Origin: a plasmid
Sequence record: OW967251.1
DNA: 64,000 bases
Strand: one strand, 5' to 3'
Shown: positions 19,541 through 38,603 of the stretch, in pieces
Layout of the letters: every line of letters begins with the position of its first letter
Numbering within the stretch: position 1 is the first letter of the stretch
Notes under the pieces: model-generated
The model's input: the letters and a program-made list of their open reading frames with translations, nothing else
Database searches by the model: none
What the model was told of the DNA's origin: nothing
Position numbers and translations under genes: made by a program

Positions 19541-19550
19541 TTTTTGTGCC

Positions 19551-20756: not shown

Positions 20757-20900
20757 ACTTTCGCCTTCATGATCTGCAACGAGTTGATCAATAATAAGCG
20801 AAATTCGATAACGAAATTCGATATAAATCTAGAAAAAAATACCTCTATGTGTACTACGCAGTTTTAGCTGTGGCTTTCACAGGAGCACGCTTACTTACGG

Positions 20901-20938
20901 CTTAGCGTGCTTTATTTTCCGTTTTCTGAGGCGATCCC
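20901..20938 (+). repeat. 38-bp Tn21-family-type terminal IR (36/38 identical to IRtnp at 29645), marking the end of the chrA-padR module; outer end at 20938
   Basis: cttagcgtgctttattttccgttttctgaggcgatccc vs cttagcgtgctttattttccgttttctgagacgacccc. Confidence 0.75.
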
Positions 20939-21115
20939 TAGGAGCTCGGATCTCAGGACGAAGGTCTCCGCGAATGTCCGGTCGATCCGCGCGACGTCCC
21001 AGGCGGGCGTTCCCTTGGCGGACATCCACGCCGCAGCGTCGTGCATCAGCCGCACAACCTCGTCGATATCACCCGAGCAGGCGACCCGAACGTTCGGAGG
21101 CTCCTCGCTGTCCAT
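20939..21115 (-). pseudogene. orf5: 3'-conserved-segment orf5 (GNAT-type) N-terminal remnant, truncated by the IR at 20938
   Basis: MDSEEPPNVRVACSGDIDEVVRLMHDAAAWMSAKGTPAWDVARIDRTF... then reads into IR sequence. Confidence 0.6.
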
Positions 21116-21242
21116 TCGCTCCCCTGGCGCGGTATGAACCGCCGCCTCATAGTGCAGTTTGATCCTGACGAGCCCAGCATGTCTGCGCCCACCTTCGCGG
21201 AACCTGACCAGGGTCCGCTAGCGGGCGGCCGGAAGGTGAATG

Positions 21243-22082
21243 CTAGGCATGATCTAACCCTCGGTCTCTGGCGTCGCGACTGCGAAATTTCGCGAGGGTT
21301 TCCGAGAAGGTGATTGCGCTTCGCAGATCTCCAGGCGCGTGGGTGCGGACGTAGTCAGCGCCATTGCCGATCGCGTGAAGTTCCGCCGCAAGGCTCGCTG
21401 GACCCAGATCCTTTACAGGAAGGCCAACGGTGGCGCCCAAGAAGGATTTCCGCGACACCGAGACCAATAGCGGAAGCCCCAACGCCGACTTCAGCTTTTG
21501 AAGGTTCGACAGCACGTGCAGCGATGTTTCCGGTGCGGGGCTCAAGAAAAATCCCATCCCCGGATCGAGGATGAGCCGGTCGGCAGCGACCCCGCTCCGT
21601 CGCAAGGCGGAAACCCGCGCCTCGAAGAACCGCACAATCTCGTCGAGCGCGTCTTCGGGTCGAAGGTGACCGGTGCGGGTGGCGATGCCATCCCGCTGCG
21701 CTGAGTGCATAACCACCAGCCTGCAGTCCGCCTCAGCAATATCGGGATAGAGCGCAGGGTCAGGAAATCCTTGGATATCGTTCAGGTAGCCCACGCCGCG
21801 CTTGAGCGCATAGCGCTGGGTTTCCGGTTGGAAGCTGTCGATTGAAACACGGTGCATCTGATCGGACAGGGCGTCTAAGAGCGGCGCAATACGTCTGATC
21901 TCATCGGCCGGCGATACAGGCCTCGCGTCCGGATGGCTGGCGGCCGGTCCGACATCCACGACGTCTGATCCGACTCGCAGCATTTCGATCGCCGCGGTGA
22001 CAGCGCCGGCGGGGTCTAGCCGCCGGCTCTCATCGAAGAAGGAGTCCTCGGTGAGATTCAGAATGCCGAACACCGTCACCAT
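21243..22082 (-). CDS. sul1: sulfonamide-resistant dihydropteroate synthase Sul1
   Basis: [56 protein letters not shown]... 279 aa (ORF call extended upstream). Confidence 0.95.
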
Positions 22083-22423
22083 GGCGTCGGCCTCCGCAGC
22101 GACTTCCACGATGGGGATCGGGCGAGCAAAAAGGCAGCAATTATGAGCCCCATACCTACAAAGCCCCACGCATCAAGCTTTTGCCCATGAAGCAACCAGG
22201 CAATGGCTGTAATTATGACGACGCCGAGTCCCGACCAGACTGCATAAGCAACACCGACAGGGATGGATTTCAGAACCAGAGAAAGAAAATAAAATGCGAT
22301 GCCATAACCGATTATGACAACGGCGGAAGGGGCAAGCTTAGTAAAGCCCTCGCTAGATTTTAATGCGGATGTTGCGATTACTTCGCCAACTATTGCGATA
22401 ACAAGAAAAAGCCAGCCTTTCAT
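22076..22423 (-). CDS. qacEdelta1: QacEdelta1 SMR efflux protein
   Basis: [115 protein letters not shown]. Confidence 0.9.
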
Positions 22424-22525
22424 GATATATCTCCCAATTTGTGTAGGGCTTATTATGCACGCTTAAAAATAATAAAAGCAGACTTGACCTGATAGTTTGG
22501 CTGTGAGCAATTATGTGCTTAGTGC

Positions 22526-22585
22526 ATCTAACGCCGGAGTTAAGCCGCCGCGCGTAGCGCGGTCGGCTTGAACGAATTGTTAGAC
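22526..22585 (-). other. attC recombination site of the aadA2 cassette (60 bp imperfect palindrome)
   Basis: gtctaacaattcgttcaagccgaccgcgctacgcgcggcggcttaactccggcgttagat on the cassette strand. Confidence 0.7.
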
Positions 22586-22586
22586 A

Positions 22587-23378
22587 TCATTTACCAACTG
22601 ACTTGATGATCTCGCCTTTCACAAAGCGAATAAATTCTTCCAAGTGATCTGCGCGTGAGGCCAAGTGATCTTCTTTTTGTCCCAGATAAGCTTGCTTAGC
22701 TTCAAGTAAGACGGGCTGATACTGGGCAGGTAGGCGTTTTATTGCCCAGTCGGCAGCGACATCCTTCGGCGCGATTTTGCCGGTTATTGCGCTGTACCAA
22801 ATGCGGGACAACGTAAGCACTACATTTCGCTCATCGCCGGCCCAGTCGGGCTGCGAGTTCCATAGCTTCAAGGTTTCCCTCAGCGCCTCGAATAGATCCT
22901 GTTCAGGAACCGGGTCAAAGAATTCCTCCGCTGCCGGACCTACCAAGGCAACGCTATGTTCTCTTGCTTTTGTAAGCAGGATAGCTAGATCAATGTCGAT
23001 CATGGCTGGCTCGAAGATACCCGCAAGAATGTCATTGCGCTGCCATTCTCCAAATTGCAGCTCGCGCTTAGCCGGATAACGCCACGGGATGATGTCGTCA
23101 TGCACGACAAGGGTGACTTCTATAGCGCGGAGCGTCTCGCTCTCGCCAGGGAAAGCCGAAGCCTCCATAAGATCATTGAGCAATGCTCGCCGCGTCGTTT
23201 CATCAAGCTTTACGGCCACAGTAACCAACAAATCAATATCGCTGTATGGCTTCAGGCCGCCATCCACTGCGGAGCCGTACAAATGCACGGCCAGCAACGT
23301 TGATTCCAGATGGCGCTCAATGACGCTTAGCACCTCTGATAGTTGGTTCGAAATTTCGATGGTCACCGCTTCCCTCAT
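22587..23378 (-). CDS. aadA2: aminoglycoside (3'')(9) adenylyltransferase AadA2-type
   Basis: MREAVTIEISNQLSEVLSVIERHLESTLLAVHLYGSAVDGGLKPYSDIDLLVTVAVKLDETTRRALLNDLMEASAFPGESETLRAIEVTLVVHDDIIPWRYPAKRELQFGEWQRNDILAGIFEPAMIDIDLAILLTKAREHSVALVGPAAEEFFDPVPEQDLFEALRETLKLWNSQPDWAGDERNVVLTLSRIWYSAITGKIAPKDVAADWAIKRLPAQYQPVLLEAKQAYLGQKEDHLASRADHLEEFIRFVKGEIIKSVGK (263 aa). Confidence 0.9.
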   Translation of the reverse strand: MREAVTIEISNQLSEVLSVIERHLESTLLAVHLYGSAVDGGLKPYSDIDLLVTVAVKLDETTRRALLNDLMEASAFPGESETLRAIEVTLVVHDDIIPWRYPAKRELQFGEWQRNDILAGIFEPAMIDIDLAILLTKAREHSVALVGPAAEEFFDPVPEQDLFEALRETLKLWNSQPDWAGDERNVVLTLSRIWYSAITGKIAPKDVAADWAIKRLPAQYQPVLLEAKQAYLGQKEDHLASRADHLEEFIRFVKGEIIKSVGK

Positions 23379-23383
23379 GATGT

Positions 23384-23674
23384 CTAACGGGCGAGGTAAG
23401 CCGACCGCAGAATGCGGGTCGGCTTGACCGAAATGTTAGAACCAGAAGCCAAAACGGATAACTTGAATTTGGCGACGGGCGCTAACCGTGAAAAAACGCT
23501 GCGCCACCGAGGCGGCACAGCACTGCAAAAACGATAGCTGCTTGCGCTTGCTACGCAAGGGCTAGAGGCCAAAAAGACTGAAAACCTGCGCAGCCCATGC
23601 AGGCGAAGCCCGGAAAAAAGGCAAAACAGGCACTGAATAACGCCTGAAAAGCTAAATGCCGTTTGAATAAACAT
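23384..23674 (-). CDS. gcuF: gene cassette of unknown function between dfrA12 and aadA2 (orfF/gcuF type)
   Basis: 96-aa ORF in cassette orientation; array dfrA12-orfF-aadA2 is a well-known arrangement. Confidence 0.55.
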   Translation of the reverse strand: MFIQTAFSFSGVIQCLFCLFSGLRLHGLRRFSVFLASSPCVASASSYRFCSAVPPRWRSVFSRLAPVAKFKLSVLASGSNISVKPTRILRSAYLAR

Positions 23675-23785
23675 GAGCTAAATAAAGCTGGGTTTCAGTG
23701 GTGCTAACGTTGGACGTAACGAGAGCCGGAGCGCAGCGGAGGGAACCAAAATGCGCAGCATTTTGGCGTCCCGTTGACGGAATGG

Positions 23786-24283
23786 TTAGCCGTTTCGACG
23801 CGCATAAACGGAGTGGGTGTACGGAATTACAGCTTGAATGGTTTCGGTTGAGACAAGCTCGAATTCTGTTTCGTTGAGCATTGGGAAGAAGGCGTCACCC
23901 TCGAAGGTTTGATGTACCTCAGATAGAAACACGCCGTGGGCGTGAGGTAGTGCCAGAGTGTATATCTCAGCTCCGCCCGCGACGTAGAGTTCATTGCCGA
24001 GTTCGGATGCCAAAGCGATAGCGTGCGACAGCGTTGAAACAACTACGCAGCCAGTGGCGCGGTAGTTAGCTTGGCGTGAGATTACCAATGTGTGACGGTT
24101 CGGTAGAGGCTTGCCGATAGACTCAAAGGTCTTTCGCCCCATGACAACGACTTTTCCCTCAGTGAGTCTGCGAAAAATCTTCTGCTCACCCGGAATTTTC
24201 CAGGGGATATTAGGACCATTGCCAATAACCCGATTGGCTCCCATCGCAGCAACGAGATAAATGCGTACTGATTCCGAGTTCAT
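23786..24283 (-). CDS. dfrA12: trimethoprim-resistant dihydrofolate reductase DfrA12
   Basis: MNSESVRIYLVAAMGANRVIGNGPNIPWKIPGEQKIFRRLTEGKVVVMGRKTFESIGKPLPNRHTLVISRQANYRATGCVVVSTLSHAIALASELGNELYVAGGAEIYTLALPHAHGVFLSEVHQTFEGDAFFPMLNETEFELVSTETIQAVIPYTHSVYARRNG (165 aa). Confidence 0.9.
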   Translation of the reverse strand: MNSESVRIYLVAAMGANRVIGNGPNIPWKIPGEQKIFRRLTEGKVVVMGRKTFESIGKPLPNRHTLVISRQANYRATGCVVVSTLSHAIALASELGNELYVAGGAEIYTLALPHAHGVFLSEVHQTFEGDAFFPMLNETEFELVSTETIQAVIPYTHSVYARRNG

Positions 24284-24427
24284 ATGGCTAACTTTGTTTT
24301 AGGGCGACTGCCCTGCTGCGTAACATCGTTGCTGCTCCATAACATCAAACATCGACCCACGGCGTAACGCGCTTGCTGCTTGGATGCCCGAGGCATAGAC
24401 TGTACAAAAAAACAGTCATAACAAGCC

Positions 24428-25441
24428 ATGAAAACCGCCACTGCGCCGTTACCACCGCTGCGTTCGGTCAAGGTTCTGGACCAGTTGCGTGAGCGCATAC
24501 GCTACTTGCATTACAGCTTACCAACCGAACAGGCTTATGTCCACTGGGTTCGTGCCTTCATCCGTTTCCACGGTGTGCGTCACCCGGCAACCTTGGGCAG
24601 CAGCGAAGTCGAGGCATTTCTGTCCTGGCTGGCGAACGAGCGCAAGGTTTCGGTCTCCACGCATCGTCAGGCATTGGCGGCCTTGCTGTTCTTCTACGGC
24701 AAGGTGCTGTGCACGGATCTGCCCTGGCTTCAGGAGATCGGAAGACCTCGGCCGTCGCGGCGCTTGCCGGTGGTGCTGACCCCGGATGAAGTGGTTCGCA
24801 TCCTCGGTTTTCTGGAAGGCGAGCATCGTTTGTTCGCCCAGCTTCTGTATGGAACGGGCATGCGGATCAGTGAGGGTTTGCAACTGCGGGTCAAGGATCT
24901 GGATTTCGATCACGGCACGATCATCGTGCGGGAGGGCAAGGGCTCCAAGGATCGGGCCTTGATGTTACCCGAGAGCTTGGCACCCAGCCTGCGCGAGCAG
25001 CTGTCGCGTGCACGGGCATGGTGGCTGAAGGACCAGGCCGAGGGCCGCAGCGGCGTTGCGCTTCCCGACGCCCTTGAGCGGAAGTATCCGCGCGCCGGGC
25101 ATTCCTGGCCGTGGTTCTGGGTTTTTGCGCAGCACACGCATTCGACCGATCCACGGAGCGGTGTCGTGCGTCGCCATCACATGTATGACCAGACCTTTCA
25201 GCGCGCCTTCAAACGTGCCGTAGAACAAGCAGGCATCACGAAGCCCGCCACACCGCACACCCTCCGCCACTCGTTCGCGACGGCCTTGCTCCGCAGCGGT
25301 TACGACATTCGAACCGTGCAGGATCTGCTCGGCCATTCCGACGTCTCTACGACGATGATTTACACGCATGTGCTGAAAGTTGGCGGTGCCGGAGTGCGCT
25401 CACCGCTTGATGCGCTGCCGCCCCTCACTAGTGAGAGGTAG
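24428..25441 (+). CDS. intI1: class 1 integron integrase IntI1 (P32 variant)
   Basis: [64 protein letters not shown]... 337 aa. Confidence 0.95.
24515..24543 (-). promoter_or_regulatory. cassette promoter Pc, PcW with TGN extended -10 (bottom strand: TGGACA-N17-TGG TAAGCT)
   Basis: top strand agctta (24515-20), cca (24521-23), 17-nt spacer, tgtcca (24538-43) inside intI1. Confidence 0.7.
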
Positions 25442-25618
25442 GGCAGCGCAAGTCAATCCTGGCGGATTCACTACCCCTGCGCGAAGGCCATCGGTGCCGC
25501 ATCGAACGGCCGGTTGCGGAAAGTCCTCCCTGCGTCCGCTGATGGCCGGCAGCAGCCCGTCGTTGCCTGATGGATCCAACCCCTCCGCTGCTATAGTGCA
25601 GTCGGCTTCTGACGTTCA

Positions 25619-25643
25619 GTGCAGCCGTCTTCTGAAAACGACA
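25619..25643. repeat. 25-bp integron inverted repeat IRi (gtgcagccgtcttctgaaaacgaca)
   Basis: reverse complement of TGTCGTTTTCAGAAGACGGCTGCAC. Confidence 0.8.
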
Positions 25644-25994
25644 ATGGAGGTGGTAGCCGAGGGTGTGGAAACACCCGACTGCCTTGCGTGGTTGCGGCAG
25701 GCGGGTTGCGACACGGTGCAGGGTTTCCTGTTCGCCAGGCCGATGCCGGCGGCGGCCTTCGTCGGCTTCGTCAACCAATGGAGGAACACCACCATGAACG
25801 CCAATGAACCGAGCACCAGTTGCTGCGTGTGCTGCAAGGAAATCCCGCTCGATGCCGCCTTCACGCCGGAAGGGGCCGAGTACGTGGAGCATTTCTGCGG
25901 GCTGGAGTGCTATCAGCGCTTCCAGGCGCGGGCCAGCACTGCGACCGAAACCAGCGTCAAACCGGACGCTTGTGATTCGCCGCCGTCAGGTTGA
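25644..25994 (+). CDS. tnpM: TnpM / C-terminal part of the EAL-domain urf2 gene interrupted by the integron (Tn21 arrangement)
   Basis: [42 protein letters not shown]... (EAL C-terminal motif) starting immediately after IRi. Confidence 0.55.
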
Positions 25995-25999
25995 GGCAT

Positions 26000-26119
26000 A
26001 CCCTAACCTGATGTCAGATGCCATGTGTAAATTGCGTCAGGATAGGATTGAATTTTGAATTTATTGACATATCTCGTTGAAGGTCATAGAGTCTTCCCTG
26101 ACATTTTGCAGGGAATTCC
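26000..26119. promoter_or_regulatory. Tn21 res (resolution) region upstream of tnpR
   Basis: position between tnpM and tnpR; AT-rich with repeated tgtca/tgaca-type half sites; boundaries approximate. Confidence 0.45.
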
Positions 26120-26680
26120 ATGACTGGACAGCGCATTGGGTATATCAGGGTCAGCACCTTCGACCAGAACCCGGAACGGCAACTGGAAGGCGTCAAGGTT
26201 GATCGCGCTTTTAGCGACAAGGCATCCGGCAAGGATGTCAAGCGTCCGCAACTGGAAGCGCTGATAAGCTTCGCCCGCACCGGCGACACCGTGGTGGTGC
26301 ATAGCATGGATCGCCTGGCGCGCAATCTCGATGATTTGCGCCGGATCGTGCAAACGCTGACACAACGCGGCGTGCATATCGAATTCGTCAAGGAACACCT
26401 CAGTTTTACTGGCGAAGACTCTCCGATGGCGAACCTGATGCTCTCGGTGATGGGCGCGTTCGCCGAGTTCGAGCGCGCCCTGATCCGCGAGCGTCAGCGC
26501 GAGGGTATTGCGCTCGCCAAGCAACGCGGGGCTTACCGTGGCAGGAAGAAATCCCTGTCGTCTGAGCGTATTGCCGAACTGCGCCAACGTGTCGAGGCTG
26601 GCGAGCAAAAGACCAAGCTTGCTCGTGAATTCGGAATCAGTCGCGAAACCCTGTATCAATACTTGAGAACGGATCAGTAA
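26120..26680 (+). CDS. tnpR: Tn21 resolvase TnpR (serine recombinase)
   Basis: [69 protein letters not shown]... Confidence 0.95.
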
Positions 26681-26682
26681 AT

Positions 26683-29649
26683 ATGCCACGTCGTTCCATC
26701 CTGTCCGCCGCCGAGCGGGAAAGCCTGCTGGCGTTGCCGGACTCCAAGGACGACCTGATCCGACATTACACATTCAACGATACCGACCTCTCGATCATCC
26801 GACAGCGGCGCGGGCCAGCCAATCGGCTGGGCTTCGCGGTGCAGCTCTGTTACCTGCGCTTTCCCGGCGTCATCCTGGGCGTCGATGAACTACCGTTCCC
26901 GCCCTTGTTGAAGCTGGTCGCCGACCAGCTCAAGGTCGGCGTCGAAAGCTGGAACGAGTACGGCCAGCGGGAGCAGACCCGGCGCGAGCACCTGAGCGAG
27001 CTGCAAACCGTGTTCGGTTTCCGGCCCTTCACCATGAGCCATTACCGGCAGGCCGTCCAGATGCTGACCGAGCTGGCGATGCAAACCGACAAAGGCATCG
27101 TGCTGGCCAGCGCCTTGATCGGGCACCTGCGGCGGCAGTCGGTCATTCTGCCCGCCCTCAACGCCGTCGAGCGGGCGAGTGCCGAGGCGATCACCCGTGC
27201 TAACCGGCGCATCTACGACGCCTTGGCCGAACCACTGGCGGACGCGCATCGCCGCCGCCTCGACGATCTGCTCAAGCGCCGGGACAACGGCAAGACGACC
27301 TGGTTGGCTTGGTTGCGCCAGTCTCCGGCCAAGCCAAATTCGCGGCATATGCTGGAACACATCGAACGCCTCAAGGCATGGCAGGCACTCGATCTGCCTA
27401 CCGGCATCGAGCGGCTGGTTCACCAGAACCGCCTGCTCAAGATTGCCCGCGAGGGCGGCCAGATGACACCCGCCGACCTGGCCAAATTCGAGCCGCAACG
27501 GCGCTACGCCACTCTCGTGGCGCTGGCCACCGAGGGCATGGCCACCGTCACCGACGAAATCATCGACCTGCACGACCGCATCCTGGGTAAGCTGTTTAAC
27601 GCTGCCAAGAATAAGCATCAGCAGCAGTTCCAGGCGTCAGGCAAGGCCATCAACGCCAAGGTACGTCTGTACGGGCGCATCGGTCAGGCGCTGATCGACG
27701 CCAAGCAATCAGGCCGCGATGCGTTTGCCGCCATCGAGGCCGTCATGTCCTGGGATTCCTTTGCCGAGAGCGTCACCGAGGCGCAGAAGCTCGCGCAACC
27801 CGATGACTTCGATTTCCTGCATCGCATCGGCGAGAGCTACGCCACCCTGCGCCGCTATGCACCGGAATTCCTTGCCGTGCTCAAGCTGCGGGCCGCGCCC
27901 GCCGCCAAAAACGTGCTTGATGCCATTGAGGTGCTGCGCGGCATGAACACCGACAACGCCCGCAAGCTGCCAGCCGATGCACCGACCGGCTTCATCAAGC
28001 CGCGCTGGCAGAAACTGGTGATGACCGACGCCGGCATCGACCGGCGCTACTACGAACTGTGCGCGCTGTCCGAGTTGAAGAACTCCCTGCGCTCGGGCGA
28101 CATCTGGGTGCAGGGTTCACGCCAGTTCAAGGACTTCGAGGACTACCTGGTACCGCCCGAGAAGTTCACCAGCCTCAAGCAGTCCAGCGAATTGCCGCTG
28201 GCCGTGGCCACCGACTGCGAACAATATCTGCATGAGCGGCTGACGCTGCTGGAAGCACAACTTGCCACCGTCAACCGCATGGCGGCAGCCAACGACCTGC
28301 CGGATGCCATCATCACCGAGTCGGGCTTGAAGATCACGCCGCTGGATGCGGCGGTGCCCGACACCGCGCAGGCGCTGATAGACCAGACAGCCATGGTCCT
28401 GCCGCACGTCAAGATCACCGAACTGCTGCTCGAAGTCGATGAGTGGACGGGCTTCACCCGGCACTTCACGCACTTGAAATCGGGCGATCTGGCCAAGGAC
28501 AAGAACCTGTTGTTGACCACGATCCTGGCCGACGCGATCAACCTGGGCCTGACCAAGATGGCCGAGTCCTGCCCCGGCACGACCTACGCGAAGCTCGCTT
28601 GGCTGCAAGCCTGGCATACCCGCGACGAAACGTACTCGACAGCGTTGGCTGAACTGGTCAACGCTCAGTTTCGGCATCCCTTTGCCGGGCACTGGGGCGA
28701 TGGCACCACATCATCATCGGACGGACAGAATTTCCGAACCGCTAGCAAGGCAAAGAGCACGGGGCACATCAACCCAAAATATGGCAGCAGCCCAGGACGG
28801 ACTTTCTACACCCACATCTCCGACCAATACGCGCCATTCCACACCAAGGTGGTCAATGTCGGCCTGCGCGACTCAACCTACGTGCTCGACGGCCTGCTGT
28901 ACCACGAATCCGACCTGCGGATCGAGGAGCACTACACCGACACGGCGGGCTTCACCGATCACGTCTTCGCCCTGATGCACCTCTTGGGCTTCCGCTTCGC
29001 GCCGCGCATCCGCGACCTGGGCGACACCAAGCTCTACATCCCGAAGGGCGATGCCGCCTATGACGCGCTCAAGCCGATGATCGGCGGCACGCTCAACATC
29101 AAGCACGTCCGCGCCCATTGGGACGAAATCCTGCGGCTGGCCACCTCGATCAAGCAGGGCACGGTGACGGCCTCGCTGATGCTCAGGAAACTCGGCAGCT
29201 ACCCGCGCCAGAACGGCTTGGCCGTCGCGCTGCGCGAGTTGGGCCGCATCGAGCGCACGCTGTTCATCCTCGACTGGCTGCAAAGCGTCGAGCTACGCCG
29301 CCGCGTGCATGCCGGGCTGAACAAGGGCGAGGCGCGCAATGCGCTGGCCCGTGCCGTGTTCTTCAACCGCCTTGGTGAAATCCGTGACCGCAGTTTCGAG
29401 CAGCAGCGCTACCGGGCCAGCGGCCTCAACCTGGTGACGGCGGCCATCGTGCTGTGGAACACGGTCTACCTGGAGCGTGCGGCGCATGCGTTGCGCGGCA
29501 ATGGTCATGCCGTCGATGACTCGCTATTGCAGTACCTGTCGCCACTCGGCTGGGAGCACATCAACCTGACCGGTGATTACCTATGGCGCAGCAGCGCCAA
29601 GATCGGCGCGGGGAAGTTCAGGCCGCTACGGCCTCTGCAACCGGCTTAG
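26683..29649 (+). CDS. tnpA: Tn21-type Tn3-family transposase TnpA (988 aa)
   Basis: full-length ORF ending ...[25 protein letters not shown] with stop inside the 38-bp IR. Confidence 0.95.
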
Positions 29650-29682
29650 CGTGCTTTATTTTCCGTTTTCTGAGACGACCCC
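29645..29682 (+). repeat. Tn21 IRtnp (38 bp)
   Basis: cttagcgtgctttattttccgttttctgagacgacccc. Confidence 0.85.
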
Positions 29683-29712
29683 TATTATGGCGAAGGTATC
29701 ATTCAGGAAGCG

Positions 29713-30093
29713 TTGATGAAGGATTATCTCTGTAAAAAGTTATTCAACCGGCTTTCCGGTACCCTGGTGATCAGAGCGCGCTGCGGCAATAACATTACTG
29801 GCCTGGCATGTTGCAATATTCTTTATCCCTCGCCCCGATACAGCGGTCAGCTGCATATTAAAGAGCTGTATGTTTCTCAGTGCGATCGAAATAAGGGCAC
29901 GGGTAAAGCGATAATGCGCTTTATAGCCCGGCTTGCGCTTGAACAGGAATGCCTTAGCCTTAGCTGGAACGCTGAAAAATCCAACCCCGGCGCTAACCGT
30001 TTTTATCAGGCTCTGGGAGGCAGAATAAATGATCATATCGTCAATTATTACCTCCACGGGGAGAGCCTGAGCAAACTGGCCTCAGGCATTTGA
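29713..30093 (+). pseudogene. C-terminal half of a GNAT acetyltransferase (ybjA-like) interrupted by the Tn21 insertion
   Basis: ...QCDRNKGTGKAIMRFIARLALEQECLSLSWNAEKSNPGANRFYQALGG... GNAT motif; ORF begins 30 bp from the IR. Confidence 0.5.
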
Positions 30094-30293
30094 GAAGCAC
30101 ACGGTCACACTGCTTCCGGTAGTCAATAAACCGGTAAACCAGCAATAGACATAAGCGGCTATTTAACGACCCTGCCCTGAACCGACGACCGGGTCGAATT
30201 TGCTTTCGAATTTCTGCCATTCATCCGCTTATTATCACTTATTCAGGCGTAGCAACCAGGCGTTTAAGGGCACCAATAACTGCCTTAAAAAAA

Positions 30294-30953
30294 TTACGCC
30301 CCGCCCTGCCACTCATCGCAGTACTGTTGTAATTCATTAAGCATTCTGCCGACATGGAAGCCATCACAAACGGCATGATGAACCTGAATCGCCAGCGGCA
30401 TCAGCACCTTGTCGCCTTGCGTATAATATTTGCCCATGGTGAAAACGGGGGCGAAGAAGTTGTCCATATTGGCCACGTTTAAATCAAAACTGGTGAAACT
30501 CACCCAGGGATTGGCTGAGACGAAAAACATATTCTCAATAAACCCTTTAGGGAAATAGGCCAGGTTTTCACCGTAACACGCCACATCTTGCGAATATATG
30601 TGTAGAAACTGCCGGAAATCGTCGTGGTATTCACTCCAGAGCGATGAAAACGTTTCAGTTTGCTCATGGAAAACGGTGTAACAAGGGTGAACACTATCCC
30701 ATATCACCAGCTCACCGTCTTTCATTGCCATACGGAATTCCGGATGAGCATTCATCAGGCGGGCAAGAATGTGAATAAAGGCCGGATAAAACTTGTGCTT
30801 ATTTTTCTTTACGGTCTTTAAAAAGGCCGTAATATCCAGCTGAACGGTCTGGTTATAGGTACATTGAGCAACTGACTGAAATGCCTCAAAATGTTCTTTA
30901 CGATGCCATTGGGATATATCAACGGTGGTATATCCAGTGATTTTTTTCTCCAT
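30294..30953 (-). CDS. catA1: chloramphenicol acetyltransferase CatA1 (Tn9 type)
   Basis: [72 protein letters not shown]... 219 aa. Confidence 0.95.
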
Positions 30954-31231
30954 TTTAGCTTCCTTAGCTCCTGAAAATCTCGATAACTCAAAAAATACGC
31001 CCGGTAGTGATCTTATTTCATTATGGTGAAAGTTGGAACCTCTTACGTGCCGATCAACGTCTCATTTTCGCCAAAAGTTGGCCCAGGGCTTCCCGGTATC
31101 AACAGGGACACCAGGATTTATTTATTCTGCGAAGTGATCTTCCGTCACAGGTATTTATTCGGCGCAAAGTGCGTCGGGTGATGCTGCCAACTTACTGATT
31201 TAGTGTATGATGGTGTTTTTGAGGTGCTCCA

Positions 31232-31507
31232 GTGGCTTCTGTTTCTATCAGCTGTCCCTCCTGTTCAGCTACTGACGGGGTGGTGCGTAACGGCAAAAGC
31301 ACCGCCGGACATCAGCGCTATCTCTGCTCTCACTGCCGTAAAACATGGCAACTGCAGTTCACTTACACCGCTTCTCAACCCGGTACGCACCAGAAAATCA
31401 TTGATATGGCCATGAATGGCGTTGGATGCCGGGCAACCGCCCGCATTATGGGCGTTGGCCTCAACACGATTTTCCGCCATTTAAAAAACTCAGGCCGCAG
31501 TCGGTAA
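31232..31507 (+). CDS. insA: IS1 InsA
   Basis: [91 protein letters not shown]. Confidence 0.95.
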
Positions 31508-31929
31508 CCTCGCGCATACAGCCGGGCAGTGACGTCATCGTCTGCGCGGAAATGGACGAACAGTGGGGATACGTCGGGGCTAAATCGCGCCAGCGCTGGC
31601 TGTTTTACGCGTATGACAGGCTCCGGAAGACGGTTGTTGCGCACGTATTCGGTGAACGCACTATGGCGACGCTGGGGCGTCTTATGAGCCTGCTGTCACC
31701 CTTTGACGTGGTGATATGGATGACGGATGGCTGGCCGCTGTATGAATCCCGCCTGAAGGGAAAGCTGCACGTAATCAGCAAGCGATATACGCAGCGAATT
31801 GAGCGGCATAACCTGAATCTGAGGCAGCACCTGGCACGGCTGGGACGGAAGTCGCTGTCGTTCTCAAAATCGGTGGAGCTGCATGACAAAGTCATCGGGC
31901 ATTATCTGAACATAAAACACTATCAATAA
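31426..31929 (+). CDS. insB: IS1 InsB frame
   Basis: 167-aa ORF, canonical InsB. Confidence 0.9.
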
Positions 31930-31930
31930 G

Positions 31931-32161
31931 TTGGAGTCATTACCCCTATACTGGATGACTCCACTTACTCGATGGAAACTCCTTGAGGAGTTGTCCTCTT
32001 GGACGATCTCTTTTGAAAACGATAGTCCCGAATGCCTCTATGAATTCGAGAGACTGCTGAATGATTACGCTTTGCGAGAAAAGCTACAGCATAAAACAGG
32101 GGCGTTGAGAGATTCTATTGTCCATAAAGTGCTTCGCAGCGTAGATGAAAGGCTTTCGTAA
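31931..32161 (+). CDS. hxsD: HxsD-like small protein of the His-Xaa-Ser system (LLNDYxLRE motif), N-terminus replaced or truncated by the IS1 end
   Basis: ...YEFERLLNDYALREKLQHKTGALRD... contains LLNDYALRE. ORF call starts at a TTG inside IS1; first in-frame ATG outside IS1 is at 31955. Stop overlaps hxsB start (TAATG). Confidence 0.55.
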   Translation: MESLPLYWMTPLTRWKLLEELSSWTISFENDSPECLYEFERLLNDYALREKLQHKTGALRDSIVHKVLRSVDERLS

Positions 32162-33549
32162 TGGAATTGATGCCATTCAATTTTGACAGATTGCCTAATG
32201 GACGGGTTTTTATAAGCAACCTCGCAGGCTTTCATCACTTCATTAATGAGCAAGAGCTGCTTGATCTTTCTGATGAGCAAATCAGTGCGGAGCAATCAAA
32301 CCCACTAGAAAGCAAGCTGTTCATAACCAACGAAAGCTCATCAGCTATTGCTCCCTATGCTTTAAGTTCTGCTTTTGCAAAAAGATTGATGAATGAACTG
32401 GCGATCAGGCCAATTTTCATGATTGTGTCCACATTGCGTTGCGACCATACCTGCAAGTATTGTCAGGTCAGTAGAGCTTCAGTGAACGCCTCTGGTTATG
32501 ATCTAGATCCCGATCTCATCCCTCATATCATTTCGACTATCAAAAAACTATCGATACCACCTTACAAGATAGAGATACAGGGTGGAGAGCCACTCTTGCG
32601 GTTCGATTTAATTCAGTCTATCTATGAGCAATGTACTGAAACGTTGGGAAGCTCCGATTTTGAGATGGTGATAGCATCAAGCCTGTCTGTCTTGAATGAG
32701 GATATGCTTCAATGGTCGAGAGGCAGGAACATAACGTTCTCTGTTTCGCTTGATGGTGAGGAGGTTGTTCACAACAGTAATCGAATTCTTGGTCATGGGC
32801 TTGCTTACAGTAGAACAGTATCAGGAGTAGAGGCTATCAAACGGTCTTTAGGCGCTGGTCGCGTTGCAACGGTTACTACAGTTACTAAAGATCTTATCAG
32901 GCATCCTGAATCGATTGTCCAGGCTCACTTGTCTCTTGGCCTCAAGGACATGTTTATCCGACCTGTTAGTCCCTATGGGTTTGCACAAAAAGCATCGTTC
33001 ACATTTTCTATGGAGGAATACTTCAGTTTCTATGCCTCGTTGATAGATGAAATCCTTAAGATGAATAATGAAGGGATAAGGGTTGTGGAACATTCGGCCT
33101 CCATTCATCTGAAAAGGATCTTCAATCCCGGCTTTAGTGGTTATGCGGATTTAAAGTCGCCAAGCGGGGTCGTGCTTAACAGTATTCTTTTCAATTATGA
33201 CGGTCGAGTATATGGTAGCGATGAGAGCCGTATGTTGCAGAAGGTGAACCCTGAAACGGAGTTCAGTGCGGGTGAGGTTAAAACGCTATCATTTTCTAAG
33301 AGTCCTTACTATAACGCAGTGTTGAGTTCATCGTTCAATTTTGCTCTGCCGGGTTGTGATACATGTGCATATCAACCATTTTGCGGTGCAGATCCATGCC
33401 AGAACATAAGTGTACAGGGTGAGCCTGTCGGTGATAGGAGTCGTTCAACGTTTTGTCAGTATCACAAGGGGATGTTCAGGTATCTGATGAACTGCATCTC
33501 AGAAGGTGGTCCGAAGGCTGAGATGCTAAAAGGATGGGCATATGTCTGA
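32161..33549 (+). CDS. hxsB: radical SAM/SPASM-domain maturase, HxsB-like (462 aa)
   Basis: CxxxCxxC motif RCDHTCKYC; Cys-rich C-terminal SPASM-like region (CDTCAYQPFCGADPC...CQYHKG); AT-rich coding sequence. Confidence 0.8.
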   Translation: MELMPFNFDRLPNGRVFISNLAGFHHFINEQELLDLSDEQISAEQSNPLESKLFITNESSSAIAPYALSSAFAKRLMNELAIRPIFMIVSTLRCDHTCKYCQVSRASVNASGYDLDPDLIPHIISTIKKLSIPPYKIEIQGGEPLLRFDLIQSIYEQCTETLGSSDFEMVIASSLSVLNEDMLQWSRGRNITFSVSLDGEEVVHNSNRILGHGLAYSRTVSGVEAIKRSLGAGRVATVTTVTKDLIRHPESIVQAHLSLGLKDMFIRPVSPYGFAQKASFTFSMEEYFSFYASLIDEILKMNNEGIRVVEHSASIHLKRIFNPGFSGYADLKSPSGVVLNSILFNYDGRVYGSDESRMLQKVNPETEFSAGEVKTLSFSKSPYYNAVLSSSFNFALPGCDTCAYQPFCGADPCQNISVQGEPVGDRSRSTFCQYHKGMFRYLMNCISEGGPKAEMLKGWAYV

Positions 33550-34654
33550 GGTTATTAGGAACGATATCTTTCATTTTGCTTCAAAAAAGAATGTGCCCAC
33601 GGGGTTCTATCGGTTATGCAAACAAAAACCAATGAACCCTTTATTCTTTTTACCCAATTTACTGGTAGTTGCTGAAGGCAATAATGATGCCATTCAACCA
33701 TGCTTTGATTTCTCTGTTATTAGCACTGAATTATATGAGTCAATTGAAGATGGAGATATTGGGATAATCAACAATGGCAATATGATACGCGTAATTCTGT
33801 CCCGCAGAGCCAATCATAATACTGTCTTAGTAACGGAACGCTGCAATAACTTGTGTCTGTTTTGTTCGCAGCCACCTAAGAAATCAAATGATGACTGGCT
33901 ACTTACCCAATCAGCTCTTGCTATAGCTTCATTTGGTTTGGATGGAGTTGTTGGGGTCAGCGGTGGAGAACCTTTGCTGTATGGAGATGATTTCCTTCAC
34001 TTCATTGATTTTATCATCGAGAATTCACCAGATACTGCTTTGCATGTTTTAACAAACGGACGCAAATTTTCTGATATCAACTTTACTCAGGAAATGGCAA
34101 AGCGAAGCAAAAAGATAAAAATCACCTTTGGTATCCCGCTCTACTCATCAAGACCACTTGTGCATGATCATCTGGTAGGGAATGATGGCGCATTTAATGA
34201 AACGGTTAAGGGATTAATTAATGCAGGAAACTCAGGGATTAATATCGAACTTAGAGTTATTCCGACACTGGCTAACTATACAGAATTGGATGATATTGTA
34301 GAGTTCGTTGGCCGTGTGTTCTCCAACATCAATCAGATTTCCCTTATGGGGCTGGAATCTATCGGTTGGGCACGAAAGAACTGGTCAACAATCTTCATTG
34401 AGCACAGCAGTTATAGTGAGAAAATAATCTCCGCCATAGACGCTGCGCACAGGTCAGGTATACCTCTAACAATTTTTAATTATCCTTTGTGTCATCTTCC
34501 CGAAAGAGCTTGGGAGCTTGCTGCTCAGTCGATCTCTGATTGGAAAAATTACTATCCTAAAGAATGTGATGAATGCACTCAGAAGTCTTCCTGTACTGGT
34601 TATTTCAGTTCCTCAACAGGCCGTTTTCATCAACCACCGAGACCAATTTTATGA
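33542..34654 (+). CDS. hxsC: second radical SAM enzyme, HxsC-like (370 aa)
   Basis: CxxxCxxC motif ERCNNLCLFC, GGEPLL glycine-rich SAM-binding motif, C-terminal Cys cluster CDECTQKSSC; 8-nt overlap with hxsB and 4-nt overlap with hxsA. Confidence 0.75.
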   Translation: MSEVIRNDIFHFASKKNVPTGFYRLCKQKPMNPLFFLPNLLVVAEGNNDAIQPCFDFSVISTELYESIEDGDIGIINNGNMIRVILSRRANHNTVLVTERCNNLCLFCSQPPKKSNDDWLLTQSALAIASFGLDGVVGVSGGEPLLYGDDFLHFIDFIIENSPDTALHVLTNGRKFSDINFTQEMAKRSKKIKITFGIPLYSSRPLVHDHLVGNDGAFNETVKGLINAGNSGINIELRVIPTLANYTELDDIVEFVGRVFSNINQISLMGLESIGWARKNWSTIFIEHSSYSEKIISAIDAAHRSGIPLTIFNYPLCHLPERAWELAAQSISDWKNYYPKECDECTQKSSCTGYFSSSTGRFHQPPRPIL

Positions 34655-35286
34655 AAAAATTTAATTTTGCTGCTCTACTTCCGGGATTTTTGGCGCTCAA
34701 TAATTCTGTATGGGCAAGTGATTCATCCACCGGAGCAAGTGATTTGCCTGGTATGACCCTTAATGAACATGATTTAGTGATAGCCCCACTTAACACCGAA
34801 GTTCCATTCTACATTGCAGGGCATCGCAGTCATAGCTCCCATCGAAGCCATAGTTCTCACCGATCATCATCAGGTGGCGGGTACTATGGTGGCAGCACTC
34901 CTTATTATCCAAAAACATACAGCTCACCAAGCTCATCTGAGTCTTCAAGTTCAGGAACAAGTTCCTCATCGTCCTCTTCCTCTGTGCGTTCGCTTCGTTC
35001 TAACGACAATAACAACTCTACTACTACGAATTCTGTTGGAACTACAGAAGCTAACCGTGCAAGTAATGGGCTGACTTCTGGTACAGAGAAGCGTAAGCGC
35101 TTAATCATGCGGGTTCAATTCGCTTTGCTGGACAAAGGTTATTACAACGGGAATATTGACGGCATAATGGGGCCTTCCACAAGGCAGTCCATAAAAAATT
35201 ATCGCATTGCGAACGGACTACCAACACCTGCAACTGAAACGCTGGATACTCAATTATTGAACTCGTTAAATATTTTGGCTCGTTAA
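34651..35286 (+). CDS. hxsA: His-Xaa-Ser repeat protein HxsA-like: signal peptide, HRSHSSHRSHSSHRSSS repeat tract, Ser-rich linker, C-terminal peptidoglycan-binding-like domain (211 aa)
   Basis: MKKFNFAALLPGFLALNNSVWA | ...IAGHRSHSSHRSHSSHRSSSGGGYYGG... | SSPSSSESSSSGTSSSSSSSS | ...LLDKGYYNGNIDGIMGPSTRQSIKNYRIANGLPTPATETLDTQLLNSL. Confidence 0.75.
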   Translation: MKKFNFAALLPGFLALNNSVWASDSSTGASDLPGMTLNEHDLVIAPLNTEVPFYIAGHRSHSSHRSHSSHRSSSGGGYYGGSTPYYPKTYSSPSSSESSSSGTSSSSSSSSVRSLRSNDNNNSTTTNSVGTTEANRASNGLTSGTEKRKRLIMRVQFALLDKGYYNGNIDGIMGPSTRQSIKNYRIANGLPTPATETLDTQLLNSLNILAR

Positions 35287-36613: not shown

Positions 36614-38151
36614 ATGAATGACATCTCTTCTGACGACATCCTTCTGCTGAAACAGCGCCTTGCCGAACAGGAAGCGCTGAACCGTGCCCTGCTGGAAAAG
36701 CTGGCAGACCGGGAGCGCGAAATAGACCATCTGCAGGCGCAGCTGGATAAACTTCGCCGGATGAACTTCGGCAGCCGTTCCGAAAAAGTCTCCCGCCGTA
36801 TCGCACAAATGGAAGCCGATCTGAACCGGCTTCAGAAAGAGAGCGATACGCTGACCGGTCGGGTGGATGACCCGGCAGTACAGCGCACTCTGCGTCAGAC
36901 CCGCACCCGCAAACCGTTCCCCGAATCACTCCCCCGCGATGAAAAACGCCTGCGGCCAGCGGGTTCCTGCTGCCCGGAGTGTGGTGGTGCGCTGAGTTAC
37001 CTGGGTGAGGATGCCGCTGAACAGCTGGAGCTGATGCGCAGCGCCTTCCGGGTGATCCGGACCGTACGGGAAAAACATGCCTGCACAAAATGTGATGCCA
37101 TCGTGCAGGCCCCCGCGCCTTCGCGCCCCATTGAGCGGGGTATCGCCGGACCGGGGCTGATGGCCCGCGTGCTGACCTCAAAGTATGCAGAGCACACACC
37201 GCTGTATCGTCAGTCTGAAATATACGGTCGCCAGGGCGTGGAACTGAGCCGTTCACTGCTGTCGGGCTGGGTGGATGCATGCTGCCGGCTGCTGTCCCCG
37301 CTGGAGGAGGCGCTTCAGGACTATGTCCTGACTGAAGGTAAACTCCATGCCGATGATACCCCGGTCCAGGTGCTGTTGCCGGGCAATAAGAAGACGAAGA
37401 CCGGGCGGTTGTGGACGTATGTTCGTGATGACCGCAACGCCGGGTCAGCGCTGGCACCGGCGGTGTGGTTCGCCTACAGCCCGACAGAAAAGGCATCCAT
37501 CCGCAGACCCATCTTGCGGGGTTCAGCGGTGTGCTACAGGCGGATGCGTACGCCGGGTTCAACGAGCTGTACCGCGATGGCCGGATAACGGAAGCCGCCT
37601 GCTGGGCTCACGCCCGCCGTAAAATCCACGATGTGCACGTTCGCACGCCGTCAGCCCTGACGGAGGAAGCCCTGAAGCGTATCGGCGAACTGTATGCCGT
37701 GGAGGCGGAAATAAGAGGAATGCTGGCGGAACAACGGCTTGCTGAACGTCAGCGGAAAACGAAACCGCTGCTTAGTACCCTGGAAAGCTGGTTGCGTGAA
37801 AAAATGAAAACGCTGTCGCGACACTCGGAGCTGGCAAAGGCGTTCACGTACACCCTGAACCAGTGGCCGGCCCTGACGTACTATGCAGAAAACGGCTGGG
37901 CCGAAGCCGATAATAACATCGCTGAAAATGCGCTGCGGATGGTCAGTCTGGGTCGTAAAAACTGGTTGTTCTTCGGCTCAGACCACGGTGGTGAGCGGGG
38001 AGCGTTGCTGTACAGTCTGATCGGGACGTGCAAACTGAACGGCGTGGATCCAGAAAGCTACCTTCGCCATGTCCTTGACGTCATAGCTGACTGGCCGGTC
38101 AACCGGGTCAGCGAGCTGCTACCCTGGCGCATCACACTGCCAACTGAATAA
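36614..38151 (+). pseudogene. tnpC: IS66 family transposase TnpC, interrupted by a frameshift near 37490
   Basis: ORF 36614..37588 (N-terminal leucine zipper, zinc-finger CPECGG, DDE region) and ORF 37465..38151 (C-terminus) are in different frames; junction ...VWFAYSP|[13 protein letters not shown]. Confidence 0.75.
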
Positions 38152-38191: not shown

Positions 38192-38603
38192 TCCCTGGAA
38201 AGCTGGCTGCGTGAAAAGATGAAAACCCTGTCGCGACACTCAGAACTGGCGAAAGCGATCGCATACGCCCTGAACCAGTGGCCGGCGCTGACGTACTATG
38301 CAGATGATGGCTGGGCTGAGGCGGACAATAACATCGCTGAAAATGCGCTGCGGATGGTCAGTCTGGGCCGCAAAAACTACCTGTTCTTCGGTTCGGATCA
38401 TGGAGGAGAGCGGGGAGCGCTGCTGTACAACCTGATCGGGACGTGCAAACTGAACGGAGTGGAGCCAGAAAGCTACCTCCGCTATGTCCTTGACGTCATA
38501 GCCGACTGGCCGATAAACCGGGTCGGCGAACTGCTCCCCTGGCGCGTAGCACTGCCGACTGAATAACACATCCCCGTCAATACGGTTCTTGCTGCACGCT
38601 TAC
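38192..38603 (+). mobile_element. tandem second copy of an IS66-family right end (about 410 bp, roughly 85-90% identical to 37778-38188), including a TnpC C-terminal ORF (38219..38566)
   Basis: [47 protein letters not shown]... parallels the 37465..38151 C-terminus; ends ...gcacgcttac at 38603. Confidence 0.8.

Follow-up and report, generated by a model that had tools for sequence, protein, structure and literature searches.

The window analysed, a stretch of 64,000 nucleotides of plasmid DNA, carries an hxsDBCA operon borne by a Klebsiella pneumoniae IncFIB/FII resistance plasmid, the first gene being interrupted by an insertion sequence. The features of the locus were assigned as follows.

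31177..31944, plus strand: IS1 (768 bp, IS1B-like), inserted in the 5' end of hxsD; identified by its inverted repeats and by the transposase annotated in an identical plasmid.
31931..32161, plus strand: hxsD', a 5'-truncated hxsD (76-aa ORF); TIGR03976, 69.8 bits, model positions 15–90 of 90.
32161..33549, plus strand: hxsB, a radical SAM/SPASM-type maturase (462 aa); TIGR03978, 556.9 bits, full length.
33542..34654, plus strand: hxsC, a radical SAM (rSAM) maturase (370 aa); TIGR03977, 402.3 bits.
34651..35286, plus strand: hxsA, the effector precursor (211 aa plus stop); TIGR03979 match, identical to RefSeq WP_004118217.1.

The hxs system was reportedly first described in silico by Haft and Basu in 2011. 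All four Hxs proteins scored above the NCBIfam curated cutoffs (TIGR03976, TIGR03977, TIGR03978 and TIGR03979), and stop and start codons overlapped along the operon. The cysteine motifs of the HXS maturases were found in both enzymes, with CxxxCxxC at C94/C98/C101 and a second Cys pair at C399/C402 in HxsB, and the corresponding residues at C101/C105/C108 and C342/C345 in HxsC. HxsB also resembled SPASM peptide maturases, namely PapB (72.8 bits) and the anaerobic sulfatase maturase (53.6 bits). PADLOC-DB 2023 contained no HXS model; HxsB and HxsC drew only weak matches there, of a generic rSAM kind, to pVip. When 80 diverse hxsA loci were inspected, HxsB was present at 78 and HxsC at 79, directly upstream of hxsA wherever contig sequence exists there.

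The hxsA ORF was confirmed at 34651..35286 on the plus strand in the ORF list of the window, which also gave a longer alternative starting at 34573. The ATG at 34651, which overlaps the hxsC stop codon as ATGA, is supported as the start by the register of the NCBIfam alignment (residue 4 pairs with model position 4), by the invariance of M1 among 70 homologues and by the annotation of WP_004118217.1. The 34573 start (237 aa) was rejected, as it lies inside hxsC and was supported by no homologue or model. HxsA matched TIGR03979 at 162.8 bits (cutoff 121.65), residues 4–209 aligning with model positions 4–189 of 190, a span that takes in the signal peptide, repeats, linker and C-terminal domain. 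Membership of the family was assigned on a score above the curated cutoff, end-to-end coverage of the model and the place of hxsA immediately after the rSAM gene pair hxsB and hxsC. The protein was 98% identical to one E. coli chromosomal HxsA. A total of 617 homologues were found, and among the 120 listed, 108 were at least 160 aa long with a Met start; nearly all of these 108 had a basic, hydrophobic N-terminus and most had 4–6 tandem HxS repeats.

Based on conservation, composition and predicted structure, HxsA was divided into six parts.

34651..34716, plus strand: residues 1–22, putative Sec-type signal peptide MKKFNFAALLPGFLALNNSVWA; sequence heuristics and family conservation.
34717..34821, plus strand: residues 23–57, a variable acidic part (23–44) followed by a conserved APLN...P-Y-I-A-G block (45–57); conservation profile.
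34822..34866, plus strand: residues 58–72, five tandem HxS repeats (HRS HSS HRS HSS HRS); sequence and homologue alignment.
34867..34920, plus strand: residues 73–90, a conserved SSSGGGY..P..P Gly/Tyr/Pro stretch, SSGGGYYGGSTPYYPKTY; conservation.
34921..35088, plus strand: residues 91–146, a Ser/Thr/Asn-rich disordered linker; composition, pLDDT <50 and low conservation.
35089..35283, plus strand: residues 147–211, a basic KRKR lead-in and a three-helix PG_binding_1 domain; PF01471, AlphaFold2 and Foldseek/profile matches.

The N-terminus was inspected heuristically and had the properties of a Sec-type (SPase I) signal peptide: a basic n-region (K2 and K3), a hydrophobic core with a 12-residue Kyte-Doolittle mean of 1.72 from residue 6, and V20-W21-A22 before S23, which places small residues at −3/−1. 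The inspection of this N-terminal sequence revealed no lipobox and no twin-Arg motif, and HxsA contains 0 Cys. The n and h regions were kept across the family, and SignalP 6.0 assigned a signal peptide at 1–22 to the E. coli orthologue (PMC13128918). In that paper, recovery of periplasmic HxsA depended on the signal peptide, and the mature periplasmic protein was covered by mass spectrometry over residues 48–214. N-terminal processing occurred somewhere in residues 23–47, a segment needed for defence, required HxsB, HxsC and HxsD, and persisted after the signal peptide was replaced (PMC13128918). The original prediction of an N-terminal cleavable Sec signal peptide thus stood for the peptide itself but was too simple as regards plain signal-peptidase cleavage: since the HxsBCD-dependent processing in 23–47 survives replacement of the signal peptide, simple SPase I maturation at A22/S23 is doubtful.

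The repeat tract, the Gly/Tyr-rich stretch and the Ser/Thr/Asn linker were located where the earlier reading had them. The sequence HRSHSSHRSHSSHRS at residues 58–72 conforms to the TIGR03979 repeat pattern, starting with HRS-HSS and ending with HRS-S. Three or more tandem HxS repeats arose in only 6 of 200,000 composition-preserving shuffles of HxsA, and H58, S60, H61, S69, H70 and S72 were invariant in 70 sequences. The SHRSS motif (69–73) is the published site of a +8 Da (+C −4H) modification (PMC13128918). In the adjoining stretch, G75, Y78, P84 and P87 were at least 90% conserved in the homologue alignment. The linker, of which 68% is Ser, Thr or Asn, was poorly conserved and varied in length and sequence across the family; AlphaFold2 assigned it a pLDDT below 50, and residues 114–139 are dispensable (PMC13128918).

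The C-terminal block had been predicted to fit the PG_binding_1 pattern, and the profile search, structure prediction and fold comparison all agreed. PF01471 matched residues 154–191 at 25.5 bits (E 1.5e-5), barely over the gathering score of 23, whereas other members of the HxsA family scored far higher. The domain was present in 62 of 70 diverse homologues (best E 5.9e-18), and its conservation in the family profile was 0.55. In the AlphaFold2 model the pLDDT was 92–98 over about residues 145–210, with helices at 142–161, 175–187 and 200–205. A three-helix PG-binding-like fold was indicated by AlphaFold2, Foldseek and the profile together. The top Foldseek matches were the PG-binding domains of SleB, SltB3, CtpB, L,D-transpeptidases and endolysins, the first entries (6tci, 5anz, 4c2f, 4lpq, 5tv7 and 5nm7) having probabilities of 0.92–1.00 with E-values of at least 0.09. 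These E-values are weak because the domain comprises only ~57 residues within a mostly disordered model; the assignment relies instead on how well the matches agree with one another and on searches by sequence profile, such as the match of the HxsA family profile to SleB (E 3.3e-7). The best PDB profile match, 9emm (OpcA), was set aside as not meaningful for the HxS tract, as it apparently combines a His-tag or low-complexity segment with a PG_binding_1-like segment.

The SleB N-terminal domain (6tci), SltB3 (5anz), CtpB (4c2c), L,D-transpeptidases and phage endolysins have the same three-helix fold and share the G-Y-Y..G..DG..G..T signature with HxsA, superposing on the HxsA model with an rmsd of 1.7–3.3 Å over 54–64 columns. 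Unlike these cell-wall enzymes, HxsA has no enzyme attached to the domain, which is preceded only by the modified repeats and their disordered linker. Mutants in the PG-binding region of HxsA lose function and defence (PMC13128918). HxsA had been described as a 211-aa secreted protein with a C-terminal PG-binding-like domain rather than a short exported peptide, and the TIGR03979 match (162.8 bits) together with that to PF01471 bore this out. As TIGR03979 itself spans 190 positions and is matched end to end, and most homologues carry PF01471, a full-length, domain-bearing HxsA is the norm of the family and nothing special to the copy in the window.

According to Li et al. (Nat Commun 2026, PMC13128918), the hxsDBCA genes defend against a broad range of phages by preventing phage DNA from entering the cell. 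HXS restricted 110 of 113 phages, with all four genes required; T7 escape mutations fell in the ejectosome proteins gp15 and gp16, and delayed DNA entry was seen in a DpnI assay and by electron microscopy (PMC13128918). Periplasmic HxsA bound DNA, its function required HxsB, HxsC and HxsD, and defence was lost in signal-peptide mutants (PMC13128918). Phage resistance through delayed DNA entry was demonstrated for the operon of E. coli strain MEM only (PMC13128918). The periplasmic location of HxsA, the need for all four genes, the position of the modification and the delayed DNA entry are thus taken from the literature alone (PMC13128918). The architecture of HxsA, its periplasmic location, its modification ahead of export and its anti-phage role were already known from that work (PMC13128918), and no new HxsA biology is added here.

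The gene identities, the domain architecture of HxsA, the family-wide conservation of that architecture and the operon coupling were observed directly. We consider it highly probable that hxsA codes for the standard precursor of the effector in the four-gene HXS defence against phages, with its published mechanism, here in a copy 5'-truncated by IS1 whose activity is uncertain. In this mechanism, the last HxS repeat (SHRSS) is covalently modified by +8 Da in the cytoplasm through HxsB and HxsC, with their small partner HxsD, and the three proteins also promote N-terminal processing of HxsA. The N-terminal signal peptide directs HxsA to the periplasm, where the C-terminal PG_binding_1 domain would hold it at the cell wall by putative peptidoglycan binding. 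The basic, modified HxS array would then delay or block phage DNA entry, possibly through electrostatic capture of the DNA. The proposal that the rSAM enzymes modify a periplasmic HxsA before export is supported by the +8 Da on SHRSS, the signal-peptide-dependent periplasmic recovery and the need for HxsBCD (PMC13128918).

To place the truncation, the IS1–hxsD junction was read directly in the window. The terminal inverted repeats of IS1 read GGTGATGCTGCCAACTTACTGAT and ...ATCAATAAGTTGGAGTCATTACC, and native hxsD sequence starts exactly at 31945, as judged by homology to intact E. coli hxsD and by alignment to the 90/92-aa HxsD. IS1 has taken the place of the native promoter and of 56 nt at the start of hxsD (numbered from the 90-aa start), leaving an operon that lacks both a complete HxsD and its original upstream sequence. 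The hxsD' ORF restarts at a TTG within the right inverted repeat of IS1, 1 nt past the insB stop. Because of the truncation, HxsD matches only positions 15–90 of TIGR03976. Native residues 1–21 are lost, including the conserved K..YSEWV.RN block, in which K, SE, V and R were conserved at 80% or more across 53 loci. AlphaFold2, applied to intact HxsD, placed strand 1 and the greater part of helix 1 in the lost segment; the homologue search yielded only close relatives, so the alignment was shallow, and two of the five models were confident. Both HXS motifs of HxsD (LYW and LLNDYxLRE) were retained in hxsD', as LYW at residues 6–8 and LLNDYALRE at 42–50.

With the promoter and HxsD residues 1–21 lost to IS1, the copy in the window may be impaired. 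Its activity is uncertain, and would require both IS1 read-through and a start codon other than ATG. The strongest alternative to a working system is that IS1 has left only an inactive or crippled locus, in which HxsA is poorly expressed or unmatured and no wall-tethered modified protein is made; we regard this as a serious possibility, at somewhat below even odds. Besides the junction itself and the conserved, structured nature of the lost segment, this reading draws on the finding that deletion of hxsD abolishes HxsA processing and defence (PMC13128918). The sole in-frame ATG (31955) would also remove the essential LYW motif. A promoter scan from IS1 to hxsD' and a terminator scan downstream of hxsA gave no signal exceeding that of shuffled sequence, which leaves the scans silent on expression.

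Against a remnant, hxsB, hxsC and hxsA are intact, both HxsD motifs are kept, and the in-frame TTG so close to the insB stop could allow IS1 read-through to express the operon. Native levels of HxsB, HxsC and HxsD are very low in any case (PMC13128918). The allele also persists: in PLSDB the same IS1–hxsD junction occurred in 96 plasmid records, compared to 213 with intact hxsD, although this may reflect mere clonal spread. HxsA and HxsC of the window share their RefSeq entries with those of a plasmid copy with intact hxsD. One example of the intact allele lies at 87600-91200 of NZ_CP095151.1. The hxs-bearing plasmids in PLSDB were almost all from Klebsiella, with IS1-truncated hxsD in about one third. 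HXS has been reported in 27% of Klebsiella genomes (PMC13128918). Since about a third of the hxs plasmid records carry the truncated gene, surveys that count the presence of hxsA, such as this one, may overestimate the strains with a working system. The status of hxsD is relevant to the choice of phages for therapy against K. pneumoniae, and the IS1-hxsD' allele offers a natural test of the need for the HxsD N-terminus.

Comparison with the nearly identical HXS of E. coli strain MEM (PMC13128918) showed the same gene order (D-B-C-A) and the same layout of HxsA, with a signal peptide at 1–22, five HxS repeats, SHRSS at 69–73 and a PG-binding domain. The catalytic Cys residues mutated in MEM, HxsB C98/C101/C399/C402 and HxsC C105/C108/C342/C345, bear the same numbers in the window, as do HxsA 48–78 and SHRSS, a likeness that rests on residue numbering (PMC13128918); the MEM genome (CP012378) was absent from the E. 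coli matches listed. The two differ in the length of HxsA (211 aa in the window, 214 aa in MEM) and in location, a Klebsiella IncFIB/FII plasmid as opposed to the E. coli chromosome (PMC13128918). They differ also in HxsD, which has 76 aa in the window owing to IS1 and 92 aa in MEM, so that Y23 of MEM corresponds to Y7 here (PMC13128918).

The original prediction also linked HxsA to metals, proposing that a cross-linked His-rich motif on murein forms a metal or redox site functionally tied to the neighbouring fec and chrA genes. The tract is basic and contains five His in 15 residues, and both fec and chrA share the 64-kb window with hxs. However, chrA (~19551-20756) belongs to a class-1-integron module, sul1-chrA-padR-IS6100, about 11 kb upstream. 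The fecIRABC genes begin around 49774, some 14.5 kb downstream, with remnants of IS66 and an amidase/ABC cluster lying in between. IS1 borders the hxs block at 31944/31945, and the homology with chromosomal hxs loci stops precisely at 31945 on one side and at 35288 on the other. Unrelated neighbours were seen elsewhere: a mer operon lies upstream of an intact hxs copy carried by the same plasmid backbone, and the E. coli chromosomal copies lie in genomic islands beside toxin-antitoxin, antirestriction and ABC-three-component genes. Among 80 diverse hxsA loci, none had a FecA/B/I/R or ChrA homologue within 10 kb, so in this set hxs showed no conserved genomic association with genes for iron citrate or chromate. 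The phenotype shown by experiment is phage defence (PMC13128918), and the word ‘metal’ occurs 0 times in the main text of that paper, which leaves metal binding by the tract a small probability. A role tied to fec and chrA was therefore abandoned as very improbable, and on the sequence context their proximity to hxs is an artefact of plasmid mosaicism. A version independent of these neighbours, in which the rSAM-modified His/Ser array is metal-binding or redox-active and blocks phage DNA entry in that way rather than by plain electrostatic capture, is only slightly less improbable.

Separate families of short HxS proteins share the repeat motif with HxsA of the window. The matches to HxsA2 (NF038296, 96 positions) and HxsA3 (NF038309, 81 positions) were confined to residues 54–77 and reached 25.0 and 16.6 bits, below the respective cutoffs of 48 and 65; assignment of HxsA to either family was rejected on these scores. 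The reading that HxsA is a mere carrier of a short, released, modified HxS peptide, with an unrelated fused tail, could appeal to these short families (though as weak partial matches), to the resemblance of HxsB to SPASM peptide maturases and to the N-terminal processing that does occur (PMC13128918), yet it is barely credible given that most of the family retains the C-terminal domain (62/70; conservation 0.55) and that the TIGR03979 model itself contains it, that the mature periplasmic species spans residues 48–214 by mass spectrometry (PMC13128918) and that mutations in the PG domain abolish defence (PMC13128918).

HxsA as the effector precursor of an anti-phage system makes HXS an unusual form of immunity, in which a radical-SAM-matured protein effector at the cell wall would stop phage DNA entry. 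The Imm/Sp superinfection exclusion of T4, which likewise blocks phage DNA entry at the envelope (PMC13128918), is a functional analogue only; unlike HXS it is phage-encoded, narrow in spectrum and without rSAM maturation or HxS repeats.

The ATG at 34651 was taken as the start of hxsA because it overlaps the hxsC stop as ATGA, because residue 4 of the product aligned to position 4 of the NCBIfam HxsA model in a profile search, and because Met1 was invariant in an alignment of 70 homologues. A longer frame starting at 34573, inside hxsC, was rejected. In identical plasmids, RefSeq annotates the same 636-nt gene (WP_004118217.1). All parts of HxsA listed in the original prediction, which had been read from the sequence alone, were present:

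34651..35286, plus strand: hxsA open reading frame, 211 codons plus stop
HxsA, MKKFNFAALLPGFLALNNSVWA: signal peptide by sequence criteria; two Lys residues, hydrophobic core, site V-W-A|S
HxsA residues 58-72: HxS array of five tandem repeats, HRS-HSS-HRS-HSS-HRS
HxsA residues 73-90: Gly/Tyr/Pro stretch
HxsA residues 91-146: linker, 68% Ser/Thr/Asn
HxsA residues 154-191: Pfam PG_binding_1 (PF01471) block

Inspection of the signal peptide revealed no twin-Arg and no Cys, hence no lipobox. When HxsA was shuffled 200,000 times, three or more tandem HxS repeats came up just 6 times.

The match of the C-terminal block to PF01471 was significant (25.5 bits against a gathering score of 23, E 1.5e-5). 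In the AlphaFold2 model, built from a 70-sequence alignment, HxsA was disordered before approximately residue 142 (pLDDT <55 in most 10-residue blocks), followed by a three-helix domain (helices 142-161, 175-187 and 200-205; pLDDT 92-98). The top Foldseek matches in the PDB were all peptidoglycan-binding modules, namely the SleB N-terminal domain, SltB3, CtpB, L,D-transpeptidases, a C. difficile PG-binding protein and phage endolysins, with probabilities of 0.92-1.00 and E-values that were weak because the domain is short. The family profile also matched SleB (3.3e-7) and SltB3 (5e-6) in a PDB search. The C-terminal domain is a bona fide PG_binding_1 fold. The top PDB match of the profile was 9emm chain E, a cyanobacterial 'OxPP cycle protein OpcA' construct, whose His-tag/linker pairs with the HxS tract, probably a tag artefact, and whose segment GYYTGPIDGITGP, which is genuinely PG_binding_1-like, pairs with the C-terminal domain.

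Based on profile scores, HxsA is assigned to TIGR03979, an equivalog model of 190 positions, of which it covers 4 to 189 at 162.8 bits (cutoff 121.65). The separate short HxS families HxsA2 and HxsA3 both scored it under their cutoffs. The description of HxsA as 'not a short exported peptide' was therefore true, but is no peculiarity of this copy, as the family model itself has 190 positions. A large protein collection contained 617 relatives; among the 120 matches listed, 108 had at least 160 aa and a Met start. Nearly all of these 108 possessed a basic, hydrophobic N-terminus and most had 4-6 tandem HxS repeats, the first HRS-HSS and the last HRS. PF01471 was matched independently by 62 of 70 aligned members (best E 5.9e-18) and PG_binding_2 by five; the tail is thus not an unrelated fusion to this copy. 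Conservation was seen in the signal peptide's n and h regions, APLN...P-Y-L-A-G, the HxS array, SSSGGGY..P..P and the C-terminal domain, while residues 23-44 and the linker varied in the alignment. The architecture is canonical for the family rather than special to the window copy.

The E. coli orthologue of the locus was characterized experimentally in 2026 as the HXS anti-phage system (Li et al., Nat Commun 2026, PMC13128918). It restricts 110 of 113 coliphages, with no abortive infection and adsorption unblocked. T7 escape mutations fell in the ejectosome proteins gp15 and gp16, and DpnI-protection assays and electron microscopy showed strongly delayed entry of phage DNA. E. coli HxsA has a signal peptide at 1-22 (SignalP 6.0) and a PG-binding domain; it was recovered from the periplasm only with the signal peptide, and defence was lost when the signal peptide was replaced or the PG region mutated. 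N-terminal processing and defence needed HxsB, HxsC and HxsD, including the Fe-S Cys residues and the LYW and LLNDYxLRE motifs of these proteins. Mass-spectrometry coverage of mature HxsA was 48-214, and SHRSS bore a +8 Da modification; no HxS repeat was dispensable, and periplasmic HxsA bound DNA. In the authors' model, HxsA would be matured in the cytoplasm, exported after maturation and anchored to peptidoglycan, where it would interfere with incoming phage DNA (PMC13128918).

The earlier reading of HxsA as a periplasmic, wall-tethered rSAM substrate is supported, and modification before export coincides with this published model. The signal peptide is present, but a plain cleavage picture was too simple, as processing is HxsBCD-dependent and persists without it (PMC13128918). 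The earlier observation is thus confirmed and its interpretation partly supported; both the observation and the order of modification and export were already known from the literature and NCBI family models. The residual interest lies in the IS1-truncated hxsD allele and the chemistry of the +8 Da modification.

At window 34651-34698 (HxsA residues 1-16), the n and h consensus was MKK..LAALLpGFL. Mean top-residue frequency among distant homologues was 0.57 for these regions versus 0.55 for the PG-binding domain, a level unusual for a signal peptide. Because processing in PMC13128918 is HxsBCD-dependent and non-canonical, residues 1-16 might also be a recognition region for the maturases.

Upstream of hxsA, the truncated hxsD (hxsD'), hxsB and hxsC each scored above their NCBIfam cutoffs, with overlapping stops and starts. 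C98/C101/C399/C402 of HxsB and C105/C108/C342/C345 of HxsC occupy the same positions as in E. coli HXS, as do SHRSS at 69-73 and the chymotryptic boundaries L47|N48 and Y78|Y79 of HxsA (PMC13128918). On all sequence criteria but one the locus is an HXS system; the exception is full-length hxsD, which is interrupted by:

31177-31944: complete IS1, 768 bp, inserted in hxsD, both inverted repeats read

Compared with intact HxsD (90-92 aa), hxsD' is without the upstream region, including the promoter, and native residues 1-21. Its frame restarts at a TTG within the IS1 right repeat, one base past the insB stop, giving MESLP-LYW...; use of the sole in-frame ATG (31955) would delete the LYW motif as well, the Tyr of which (Y23 in PMC13128918 numbering) is essential. 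Since neither HxsA processing nor defence survives the deletion of hxsD (PMC13128918), the window copy may be impaired. The lost segment holds K..YSEWV.RN, with K, S, E, V and R at least 80% conserved across 53 diverse HxsD sequences, and in AlphaFold2 models of intact HxsD it made up strand 1 together with the greater part of helix 1 (best model pLDDT 83.7, with a shallow alignment and three of five models poor). Against impairment, hxsB, hxsC and hxsA are intact, both known HxsD motifs (LYW and LLNDYxLRE) are kept, and IS1 read-through could drive the operon, maturase levels being naturally very low (PMC13128918). The identical IS1-hxsD junction was found in 96 plasmid records, and intact hxsD with its upstream region in 213; the truncated records would score positive if HXS were counted by hxsA presence. 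A 96-aa K. pneumoniae HxsD variant carried another foreign N-terminus of 25 residues joined immediately before LYW, which suggests that hxsD was rearranged a further time, independently, at almost this position.

Among 5,426 complete E. coli genomes, hxsA was present in 155, chromosomal in all and on plasmids in none. In strain ECC-1470 the operon adjoins DUF3732, ABC-three-component genes and a DUF6119 pseudogene; in VREC0864 its island is associated with tRNA-Thr and also contains antirestriction, YeeU/YkfI toxin-antitoxin and WYL-domain genes. These E. coli chromosomal operons lie in mobile genomic islands, and both settings are consistent with a defence island. Near-identical plasmid copies were from Klebsiella in 303 of 308 matching records; their plasmids are large and for the most part conjugative (IncFIB/FII in both examined).

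The window matched a conjugative IncFIB/FII K. pneumoniae plasmid at 99.998% identity over 43.5 kb. Around hxs, the following were located:

~13235-30953: multiresistance region upstream of IS1 (basis: identical plasmid NZ_CP029101.1), with aph(3')-Ia, IS26, mph(A)-mrx-mphR, IS6100, padR-chrA, sul1-qacEdelta1-aadA2-dfrA12-intI1, TnAs3 tnpR/tnpA, a GNAT gene and catA1
~19551-20756, minus strand: chrA, in the module sul1-chrA-padR-IS6100-mph(A), which is joined to a class 1 integron
30294-30953, minus strand: catA1, mapped from NZ_CP029101.1
35822-38566: IS66-family element downstream of hxsA, fragmented and partly duplicated
from ~49774: fecIRABC, past IS66 remnants and an amidase/ABC-transporter cluster

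The hxs block is a separate piece of the plasmid: the stretch homologous to hxs loci on E. coli chromosomes begins precisely at 31945 and ends at 35288, two bases beyond the hxsA stop. Another plasmid with the same backbone had a mer operon upstream of hxs. In a set of 80 species-level hxsA loci, taken with flanks of at most 10 kb, HxsB was present at 78 and HxsC at 79, directly upstream wherever contig sequence exists there, and FecA, FecB, FecI, FecR and ChrA at none. The original prediction had linked a metal or redox site to the fec and chrA neighbours; this link is not supported, the adjacency being attributable to plasmid mosaicism. The main text of PMC13128918 makes no mention of metals, and the His-rich tract might still bind them, but nothing in the analysis supports this. 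In the IS66-family element, the tnpC frame was split (36614-37588 and 37465-38151), and a second C-terminal fragment of 115 aa (38219-38566) was ~88% identical to the first.
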